Source: Acidobacteriota bacterium (GTDB taxonomy: Bacteria > Acidobacteriota > UBA890 > WLXD01). Taken from it: DNA of 64,000 nt. Position 1 is the stretch's first letter, and each line of letters starts with the position of its first letter. Shown piece by piece: positions 19,682 to 23,024 of this stretch. The translations under genes were made by a program, and so were the position numbers. Location: positions 1,120,001 to 1,184,000 of the forward strand of contig CAXWPH010000015.1 in the NCBI GenBank assembly GCA_963666055.2, written 5' to 3'. The notes beneath the pieces are model-generated. The model saw nothing but the letters and a program-made list of their open reading frames with translations. It did no database searches and was not told the origin of the DNA.

Positions 19682-20150
19682 ATAGCATCCATGATCTGGG
19701 CGGGATGACGATCTGGGCGGGATGACCTGTTTTGGCCCGGTCGCGCGGGAGCACGGCGAGCCGGTCTTTTGCGCCGAGTGGGGAAGACGTGTCTTCGCGA
19801 TGAATCTCGCCGCCGGCGGGCCCGGGCCGATCGACGCGGCGCGCCACGCCAGTGAGCGAATGGACCCATTGCTCTATCTCACCGTCTCGTACTACGAACG
19901 GTGGCTGGCCGGCATGGAGGCGCGAGCCAAGGAGGTAGGCGTGCTCTCCGAGGAGGAGATCGCCAGCGGCGTCTCCACGACGAAACCGCCCGCTGGGGAT
20001 CCACCCCCGAACGCAGAGATCATCGAGGCGATCGTGCGCGGCGGAATGGCATCCAGCCCGCAACATCGGGTGGCTCCAACCACGATTCGACGTCGGCGAT
20101 CGGACCCCTGGGAGGACTACCTGGATCCGGTAGCGACGGGTGTCGAATGA
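19678..20150 (+). pseudogene. nthB: Nitrile hydratase beta subunit, frameshifted and internally deleted
   Basis: ATG at 19678 gives MNSIHDLGGM. A 17-bp tandem duplication gatctgggcgggatgac (19693-19709, 19710-19726) shifts the frame. Removing it gives MNSIHDLGGMTCFGPV...W...RVF...RHASERMDP..YL..SYYERWL. It ends DPWEDYLDP but lacks most of the SH3-like domain. Confidence 0.85.
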
Positions 20151-20374
20151 GTGACGATCCCCAGCATGACCATGATCACGATCACGACCACCCCCACGAC
20201 CACCCCCACGACCACCCCCACAGTGCTCCGCCGAACCCGTATCTAGAGCCGCGGCGAACCGCCGACGAGACCGCCGCCCTCGAGCAGCGTGCGCAAGCGA
20301 TCGAAGCGTTGCTGATCGACAAGGGCCTGGTGTCGAAAGACGTACCTGAGCGACCTCGTCCCGGTCGTCAGTGA
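20147..20374 (+). pseudogene. nthA: Nitrile hydratase alpha subunit, N-terminal fragment only
   Basis: ATGA-coupled to the beta gene. His-rich MSDDPQHDHDHDHDHPHDHPHDHPH, then EQRAQAIEALLIDKGLV. It breaks off before the CxxCSC metal site. Confidence 0.78.
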
Positions 20375-22058: not shown

Positions 22059-22172
22059 TTCAGTTACTGGTCTCAAACACACGCGGGGAGACGCAAGTTC
22101 TCCCGAGAAGCGCTCGCATCATTGATGCCGCCGCTTCATCGCTAAGAAACCGATCGGAGCGATGCATTGCCC

Positions 22173-23024
22173 ATGCCCATTCCCGTTCGCGAGCGCGACT
22201 ACGCTCATCCGGAGCTGCTGGCCGAGACCGATTGGCTCGCCAGTCGTCTGTCCGATCCGACGGTTCGTGTTGTCGATGCTCGTTCTGACGAAGACTACGC
22301 CGGCGACCATATTCCCGGTGCTGTTCACATCAACGGCTTCACGCTTGGCGGGATACGCCCTGAATCCGAGATGCCAGAGCCCGAGGCCTTCGCTCACCTG
22401 GTCGGGGCGCTTGGAATCGACGAGCGCACACCGGTCGTCGTCTACGACGCGGGGGGGCGGTCGCAATTGTCCCAGTTGGCGGGGATGACCGCCTGGACGT
22501 TCCTTTACTACGGCCATCCCGATGTTCGTTACCTCGATGGTGGGTTGACGAAGTGGACCGCCGAGGGGCGGCCGCTTTCCAGCGACCCCCCGGCCCACGA
22601 ACCGCGGAGGTTCGCAGCGCGCCCGGTAGAGGGCGTCTACTGCTCCCTGAACCAGGCGAAAGCCTCCATCGATGACGCCGGCGTCGTCTTCTGGGACGTG
22701 CGCAGTCTCGGCGAGTTCGAGGGGACGACGAAAGGGTGGAATGCTCCGCCCCGGCTCGGGCACCTGCCGGGCGCTGTCCATTTGGACTACCGCGAGCTGT
22801 TCGATGCCGACAACGGGACGTTGAAGCCTGCCGCCGAGCTCAGCACGCTTCTGGGGGACAAAGGGATTACACCGGAGGCCGCGGTCACTACCTACTGAGG
22901 GGGTGGTGCGCGCGCGGGTCTCGCAGCGCTCGTCCTGAAGATCCTCGGTTATGGCCGGGCATCGAACTACGCTGGATCCTTCAACGAATGGGCCAATCAG
23001 CCCGACACCGATGTGGATCGCTGA
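22173..23024 (+). CDS. Two-domain rhodanese / 3-mercaptopyruvate sulfurtransferase, probable selenoprotein (UGA=Sec at 22896-22898)
   Basis: VVDARS..Y..DHIPGAV, LDGGLTKW, WDVRS..EF.G, GHLPGAV. The frame continues through TGA as VTTY-U-GGGARAGLAALVLKILGY...NYAGSFNEW...* to 23024. The TGA sits at the catalytic Cys position. Alternative start TTG at 22167. Confidence 0.88.
22908..22929 (+). promoter_or_regulatory. Putative bacterial SECIS hairpin
   Basis: GCGC-GCG-[CGGGUCU]-CGC-A-GCGC begins 9 nt after the UGA and has GGU in the apical loop. Confidence 0.65.

Follow-up and report, generated by a model that had tools for sequence, protein, structure and literature searches.

A predicted selenocysteine-containing tandem rhodanese in an Acidobacteriota genome

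The locus and the encoded protein

The window, by which we mean the whole 64,000-nucleotide stretch that was analysed, encodes a sulfurtransferase on its forward strand (22173..23024, +). From the ATG at 22173 the frame runs through 241 codons to a TGA at 22896–22898, continues for 41 sense codons and ends at a second TGA (23022–23024), giving a protein of 283 amino acids with a predicted Sec at position 242. The ORF caller terminates the gene at 22898; an earlier sequence-only reading had noted that the frame stays open for 41 more codons, and this is read directly from the DNA. The resulting 41-residue tail contains GGGARAG...LGY...NYAGSFNEW, and the predicted Sec codon (22896..22898, +) opens the catalytic loop U-G-G-G-A-R (22896-22913). 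The true start may instead be an in-frame TTG at 22167, which would add two residues, since it lies 7 nt after a GGAG Shine-Dalgarno sequence (22156-22159) and the window copy carries a 7-nt insertion in the start region relative to nine of ten aligned relatives. Upstream lies a 5′ leader of about 80 nt (22094..22171, +) that accompanies the gene in part of the family and is about 80% identical to 17 other loci; no second copy was found in the host genome, referred to below as G000. A structured RNA in the leader was considered and rejected, as no convincing conserved structure emerged (covariation term +0.16). A scan for promoters and terminators around the gene gave nothing above shuffled sequences.

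A Pfam search with the read-through protein detected two rhodanese stretches (E 2e-36). The N-terminal rhodanese domain (22227..22565, +; PF00581, residues 19-131) is predicted to be inactive, with Asp92 (22446-22448, +) aligned at the catalytic position; this residue is an Asp in 26 of 27 Sec rows and in all 12 Cys rows of the family alignment. The active C-terminal domain has approximate limits of 22647..23003 (+), drawn from alignments to 1e0c, 1uar and 3aax and from a structural model. An inactive N-terminal domain and a C-terminal one that is active are described for two-domain rhodaneses in the accessible text of PMC10135228, and the class 2 layout is found here, with Asp92 in the N-domain and a C-x4-R-type loop, U242-GGGA-R247, in the C-domain. 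The claim that the TGA sits at the catalytic Cys was borne out: position 242 aligns with the catalytic Cys of Thermus thermophilus rhodanese, Azotobacter vinelandii RhdA, CysA, TST and others. An AlphaFold2 model built from a 13-row alignment had a pLDDT of 86.8 and a pTM of 0.88, and Foldseek returned TM-scores of 0.84-0.89 to RhdA (1e0c), 1uar and mycobacterial CysA. By tblastn, this is the only tandem sulfurtransferase in the host genome.

The protein shares the tandem fold, 29-34% sequence identity and a C-x4-R loop closing with Arg with RhdA (1e0c), the T. thermophilus enzyme (1uar) and mycobacterial CysA/SseA (3aax, 3hwi, 3hzu). These proteins differ in having Cys, not Sec, and loops such as CQTHHR and CRIAER where UGGGAR is found here. 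TST and MPST/SseA likewise combine an inactive N-terminal with an active C-terminal domain and give TM-scores of about 0.8, but neither the TST loop CRKGVT nor the MPST loop CGSGVT is present. Assignment to TST (rhodanese proper) thus finds no match at the loop, and the NCBIfam MPST model NF008557 scored 102 bits against a cut-off of 250.

Decoding of the in-frame TGA

A protein search gave 2012 matches at E <= 1e-30 among 7998 scored candidates, and the best 120 of the 2012 were inspected. The proteins end exactly at residue 241 in 106 cases (one being the window's own cluster), have Cys242 in 13 and end elsewhere in one, as judged from the protein sequences rather than their DNA. This count, together with published catalogues that list Sec-rhodaneses, agrees with the earlier statement that such enzymes are known and routinely truncated. 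Among distant representatives clustered at 50% identity, 14 of 150 likewise end at 241. At the DNA level we assembled 49 loci, some of them duplicates: the window, one in the related genome G002, nine further genome loci and 38 metagenome loci. The TGA is kept in 47 of the 48 loci that cover the site, window included, and the exception is a contig frameshifted there. Two metagenome copies (L086 and L073) are frameshifted at or just after the TGA and are either assembly errors or dead copies. In a sample of 401 Dehalococcoidia genomes, 19 matched at E <= 1e-60, with TGA at the aligned codon in 15 and TGC in four; TGA was seen down to 40% identity. The expected Cys/TGA pairs at this site were therefore seen in both the DNA and the protein comparisons. 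At residue +6 after the TGA the close Sec rows have Ala, and each of the 13 Cys homologues among the best 120 has Gly.

The prediction that the organism encodes SelABCD also stood. In G000 (95.7% complete), selA, selB and selD all score over curated cut-offs, and two tRNA-Sec(UCA) genes, one base apart, lie inside a 2-kb duplicate. The two outcomes named beforehand as evidence for a plain nonsense mutation, a genome without Sec machinery and homologues without the TGA, were not encountered. The tRNA-Sec repeat (G000:C6:7932-8029 and C13:66090-66187; 2 kb, 99.9%) is accompanied by a second case of doubling, an identical DsrE-type Sec gene at C14:289437 and C15:433226, and both pairs may be real duplications or the assembly of strain variants. 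The selD gene of G000 (C2:114268-115182, +) occupies the end of an open frame of 758 codons and appears to be fused to a domain upstream. Its product appears to be a Cys form, with Cys and not Sec in the N-terminal motif, and so it supplies no SECIS reference. ARAGORN also reported a CUA-anticodon tRNA (G000:C5:65608-65685, -) with two anticodon-stem mismatches that may be degenerate.

Sec genes were also found in the other hosts. The nine genome hosts have tRNA-Sec in 9/9 and selA in 8/9, G002 has both, and 13 further TGA hosts have selA in 12 and tRNA-Sec in 12; across all sets, selB is present in each of the three hosts where one of these is missing. Among hosts of Cys forms, G229 and G143 do have selA, tRNA-Sec and selD, while in G156 and G096, genomes of unstated completeness, no selA, selB, tRNA-Sec or over-cut-off selD was found.

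These comparisons bear on the reading of the TGA as a true stop, by nonsense mutation or regulated truncation, in which case the gene would be dead or would encode a 241-residue non-catalytic protein. The databases hold only truncated products and the hairpin described below is weak, as this reading would have it. Against it, the same TGA is kept over 40-95% identity, and the frame downstream is not only open but better conserved than the frame upstream, with a mean protein identity of 88% after the TGA and 76% before it. (These values come from 38 distinct coding sequences, from which two frameshifted rows, four short rows, locus L055 and duplicates had been dropped.) Furthermore, the stop at codon 242 never becomes TAA or TAG, whereas the terminal stop varies, and no TGA form was met in a host without Sec genes: all 23 tested besides G000 have tRNA-Sec or selA. 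We consider a true stop effectively refuted and very improbable. That an altered genetic code makes TGA a codon for Trp, Cys or Gly has a probability close to nil, and no point in its favour was found. The gene itself ends at TGA, the conserved Trp at +31 is TGG in 38/38 rows, the only UCA-anticodon tRNAs that ARAGORN detects in G000 are the two tRNA-Sec genes, and the residue aligned in homologues is Cys.

Decoding as Sec would also call for a SECIS element, and a GGU-looped hairpin had been reported soon after the TGA. A GGUCU loop is present at 22917-22921, but its folding energy is not above chance. In the predicted bacterial SECIS (22908..22929, +), the upper stem pairs 22914-16 with 22922-24 and the lower stem pairs 22908-11 with 22926-29; the structure can be extended to 22900-22936. 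The GGUCU-loop hairpin starts 19 nt after the TGA (18-nt spacer) and has a folding energy of -16.8 kcal/mol. The bSECIS criteria given in the accessible text of PMC13188914 are a loop of 3-9 nt, a G in its first two positions, a spacing of 16-37 nt, an MFE <= -7.5 and an upper stem of 4-16 bp. Loop, spacing and MFE fall within these limits, and the upper stem is borderline, having three Watson-Crick pairs (four with a G-U) and a predicted probability of 0.41 in the window. A 50-nt fold gave z = +0.96, with 164 of 200 shuffles folding as well. Folding energy was accordingly rejected as proof of a SECIS: of four folds, three gave z values from +0.96 to +2.1 and one gave -0.1. With an energy no better than that of shuffles, the hairpin proves nothing by itself, and the evidence is comparative.

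Across the 38 coding sequences, silent changes average 4.05 over 86 four-fold sites; codons +6 and +7 have none, and +4 and +8 have one each. Outside +1..+12, only 2 of 77 four-fold sites have zero silent changes. Codon +10 has none among 31 Ala rows, and Gly +7 is GGT in 38/38 rows, a codon that makes up 16% of Gly codons in G000. Ranked by silent-site freezing over stretches of seven sites, the SECIS region comes only 5th of 80. Pairing in the family seems to follow one of two registers, with a silent position, the third base of Arg +5, as the switch between them. Of 17 distinct rows with C there, as in the window, 15 have the GGUCU-loop register at a predicted probability above 0.4. Of 11 rows with G or A, 9 have a register whose loop G lies at +18, at a predicted probability of >= 0.75, and 9 of 13 distant Sec rows are likewise predicted to use the latter. 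All four Cys loci form neither hairpin. In the window's own register no compensatory change was found, there being no double change in 26 rows. The +18-loop register covaries (91% paired, 22 double-change cells, 0/500 shuffles), based on 19 rows and a structure that were chosen after the folds had been seen; it would represent the older pairing across distant relatives. Two other arrangements were rejected. The only other consensus hairpin (+92..+105), a candidate displaced SECIS, lacks a G in the first loop position and is dictated by the encoded amino acids, and a candidate long-range helix (+9/+63) is mismatched in 4 of 38 rows, with a pair scan giving scattered chance pairs only.

Taken from comparative sequence evidence, the TGA at 22896-22898 is almost certainly decoded as Sec, and the recoded gene is likely intact, not broken. 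With near certainty, SelB–tRNA-Sec would bind the hairpin 19 nt downstream and insert Sec. Where insertion fails, translation would stop and leave a 241-residue product without the active site.

By its predicted gene content the host organism is a heavy Sec user. We scanned G000 for coding potential on both sides of TGA codons and ran family searches with 16 hand-picked candidates, of which one matched no family. TGA at Cys-type motifs was found in SelW-, Grx-, DsrE-, AhpD-, Prx/TlpA-, DUF3179-, deiodinase- and PrdB-like genes. A 295-residue ORF (G000:C14:448171-449055, +, = L120:672-1556) has a signal-peptide-like start and a GGUC-loop hairpin after each of its two in-frame TGA codons. It has no Pfam or NCBIfam match, and it may be MerB-like. 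A second Sec-rhodanese candidate (G000:C5:31814-32431, -, = L115:4815-5432) has a single domain, a lipoprotein-like leader and the loop U-N-G-G-G-R. A third gene encodes a metallo-beta-lactamase/persulfide-dioxygenase fused to two rhodanese domains (G000:C7:331085-332521, +, = L114:4086-5522), with 3tp9 (E 7e-67) and 3r2u as best PDB matches. Its in-frame TGA aligns to a Cys kept in 4/4 relatives and is followed by a hairpin, and the same TGA occurs in G002 at 90% identity; no TGA form was found in 26 other hosts of the sulfurtransferase gene. In a word search of the accessible texts, 'lactamase', 'MBL' and 'persulfide' were absent from the 2026 catalogue (PMC13188914), and 'lactamase' and 'dioxygenase' from that of 2022 (PMC9312934). 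The fusion is possibly an unlisted selenoprotein, a prediction supported by two related genomes.

Evolution and genomic setting

We built a tree from 43 rows with a Cys outgroup, masking the catalytic codon together with 12 SECIS codons; a 109-row quick tree agrees with it. The tree needs four changes between Sec and Cys, all forced by starred branches. Since the outgroup has Cys, as does a basal row, the most economical reading would be one gain of Sec from Cys and three reversions. Holding all Sec rows together was rejected (p-AU 2e-20), as was holding the 20 Dehalococcoidia rows together (p-AU 5e-4), with both groups named after the trees had been seen. The close clade, at 70-95% identity, contains records labelled Myxococcota, Acidobacteriota, Gemmatimonadota and Chloroflexota, of which two are whole chromosomes; deep genome sampling covered one class, the Dehalococcoidia. 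Two N-terminal fusions (P0066 and P0068) look like over-extended starts and were set aside. As far as the tree can tell, Sec would be an exchangeable improvement on Cys that arose a single time, reverted on three occasions and passed from phylum to phylum with the one gene.

The surroundings of the gene are variable. No conserved neighbour of the sulfurtransferase was found, neighbours in the cluster table being common only to near-identical contigs, and no sel gene recurs beside it. Flanks differ even between G000 and G002, and a small divergent ORF near the gene is common to few loci only. Four public sequencing runs contain many variants on the gene and unrelated sequence beyond 22172 and 23026. 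A close match is present in only one of four same-genus genomes; the other three have selA and tRNA-Sec without a close match. Elsewhere in the window, 19722-20374 (+) encodes an N-terminal fragment of nitrile hydratase beta (PF21006), and a His/Asp-rich 75-codon ORF from 20147, with no Pfam match, presumably resembles the start of the alpha chain. The 19722-20374 region is apparently a truncated operon remnant.

Relation to known Sec-rhodaneses and proposed chemistry

By fold type and motif, a comparison made with the published description rather than with its representatives, the predicted protein matches the catalogued form 4 selenoprotein, the COG2897 'rhodanese-related sulfurtransferase'. 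It is a PF00581 SseA-type tandem rhodanese with one Sec in a UxxG motif (U-G-G-G). In the accessible descriptions the likeness to form 4 covers the SseA/COG2897 type, Sec in place of Cys, UxxG, a downstream SECIS and widespread Cys homologues; these same passages make no mention of Cys157 (see below), reversions or SECIS registers. The form-4 representatives MCY3690685.1, MQG53192.1 and AACY01016424 are not among the accessions of the matches listed, and the present family may be either their clade or a parallel gain of Sec. According to the accessible texts, the COG2897 rhodanese selenoprotein was reported with three sequences in the Sargasso Sea study (PMC1088965) and with 8 plus 1 sequences in GOS (PMC2398784), is repeated in a 2022 review (PMC9312934) and appears in a 2026 review as form 4, UxxG, 'predicted with high confidence' (PMC13188914). 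No Sec-rhodanese is listed as experimentally verified in the available part of the latter catalogue. The other Sec-rhodaneses, forms 1, 2, 3 (NF041203) and 5 (TsoB), are alike in having Sec in a rhodanese domain. Forms 1, 3 and 5 differ in motif (UxxS, CxU and UxxxxU), and form 2 shares UxxG but is described there as COG0607/PspE-type. With the TsoB model our protein scores 22 bits against 805. A literature search, with most subscription journals outside its coverage, found no biochemical study of a Sec tandem rhodanese; PMC1794560 and PMC13510729 have rhodanese in their reference lists only. The Sec sulfurtransferase family has thus been predicted since 2005, and the present protein is a well supported putative selenoprotein. 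The known picture of Sec decoding is unchanged.

A selenolate is a better nucleophile than a thiolate and resists over-oxidation. We consider it reasonably probable, by analogy with the family, that the enzyme passes sulfane sulfur on to thiol acceptors by way of a Sec-bound sulfur (E-Se-SH). With about the same moderate confidence, the selenolate would take sulfane sulfur from a persulfide, polysulfide or thiosulfate donor. The donor is the weakest step, because the loop is neither of the TST nor of the MPST type. The bound sulfur would then pass to a thioredoxin-type or small thiol, and a stand-alone enzyme of this kind would buffer or detoxify reactive sulfur. In two-domain rhodaneses the C-terminal loop's Cys is the carrier of sulfur, specificity is guided by the loop sequence and thioredoxin is a favoured acceptor, according to the accessible text of PMC10135228. 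Many predicted thioredoxin-fold selenoproteins in G000 are possible acceptors. Several observations speak against the proposal: no conserved neighbour points to a pathway, two hosts of Cys forms (G229 and G143) do have Sec machinery, and an invariant second cysteine, Cys157 (22641..22643, +), is unexplained by simple one-residue transfer.

Cys157, one of 18 near-invariant columns, is present in 27/27 Sec rows, 12/12 Cys rows and 120/120 database proteins (159/159 family rows) and is Ala in 4/4 outgroup rows. Among the distant 50% representatives, whose rows are related rather than independent, it is found in 11 of 14 that end at 241, compared with 14 of 123 with Cys242. A second way to use a genuine Sec would be a two-centre redox catalyst, in which Sec242 reacts with a persulfide, thiosulfonate, peroxide or oxyanion and Cys157 either resolves the intermediate as a selenosulfide or serves as a second site of a sulfur relay, recycled by thioredoxin. 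The invariance of Cys157 and its enrichment among presumed Sec forms would fit, as would the statement, in the part of PMC13188914 available, that most characterised selenoproteins are redox enzymes. On the other hand, Cys157 is older than Sec, since the basal Cys row and every revertant have it. In the AlphaFold2 model it sits in the C-terminal domain's short first strand, a place taken in solved homologues by small residues, Ala in RhdA and 1uar for example, so it may be core packing. We regard a two-centre redox role as unlikely, though deserving of attention.

A third proposal makes the enzyme a selenium carrier or detoxifier that would bind, in a diselenide-type adduct, Se arising from selenite/thiol chemistry and would feed SelD or export Se. 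In vitro, Se binding by Cys rhodaneses is 1:1 and takes the form of a perselenide (accessible text of PMC9369223), the hosts are heavy Sec users, and ExtH, the rhodanese of a selenite operon, is matched weakly (46 bits, with the cut-off at 200). Three of the findings above argue the other way: the lack of a sel gene among conserved neighbours, the three same-genus genomes that have selA and tRNA-Sec but no close match, and the Cys orthologues kept in G156 and G096, genomes of unstated completeness in which selA-D were not found, which tilt the evidence to a sulfur role and against Se supply. Selenium delivery is less likely than sulfane-sulfur transfer, and we rate it improbable. At a similarly low level of credence, a broader picture can be drawn. 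A Sec/Cys two-centre rhodanese, with Cys157 as the partner of Sec242, and the putative Sec persulfide-dioxygenase-rhodanese fusion of G000 and G002 would together form a selenium-catalysed sulfane-sulfur route in marine bacteria, and a silent Arg-codon change would have slid the SECIS loop by one to two bases with the recoded codon kept.

For the family, the leads are the invariant Cys157, the putative Sec dioxygenase fusion and the natural Sec/Cys pairs. The latter, at 75-80% identity (P0004 and P0005), would offer a ready test of the role of selenium in persulfide chemistry. The scale of mis-annotation matters as well: with 106 of the best 120 homologues recorded without their active site, marine hosts of four phyla would have a hidden and probably intact sulfurtransferase.
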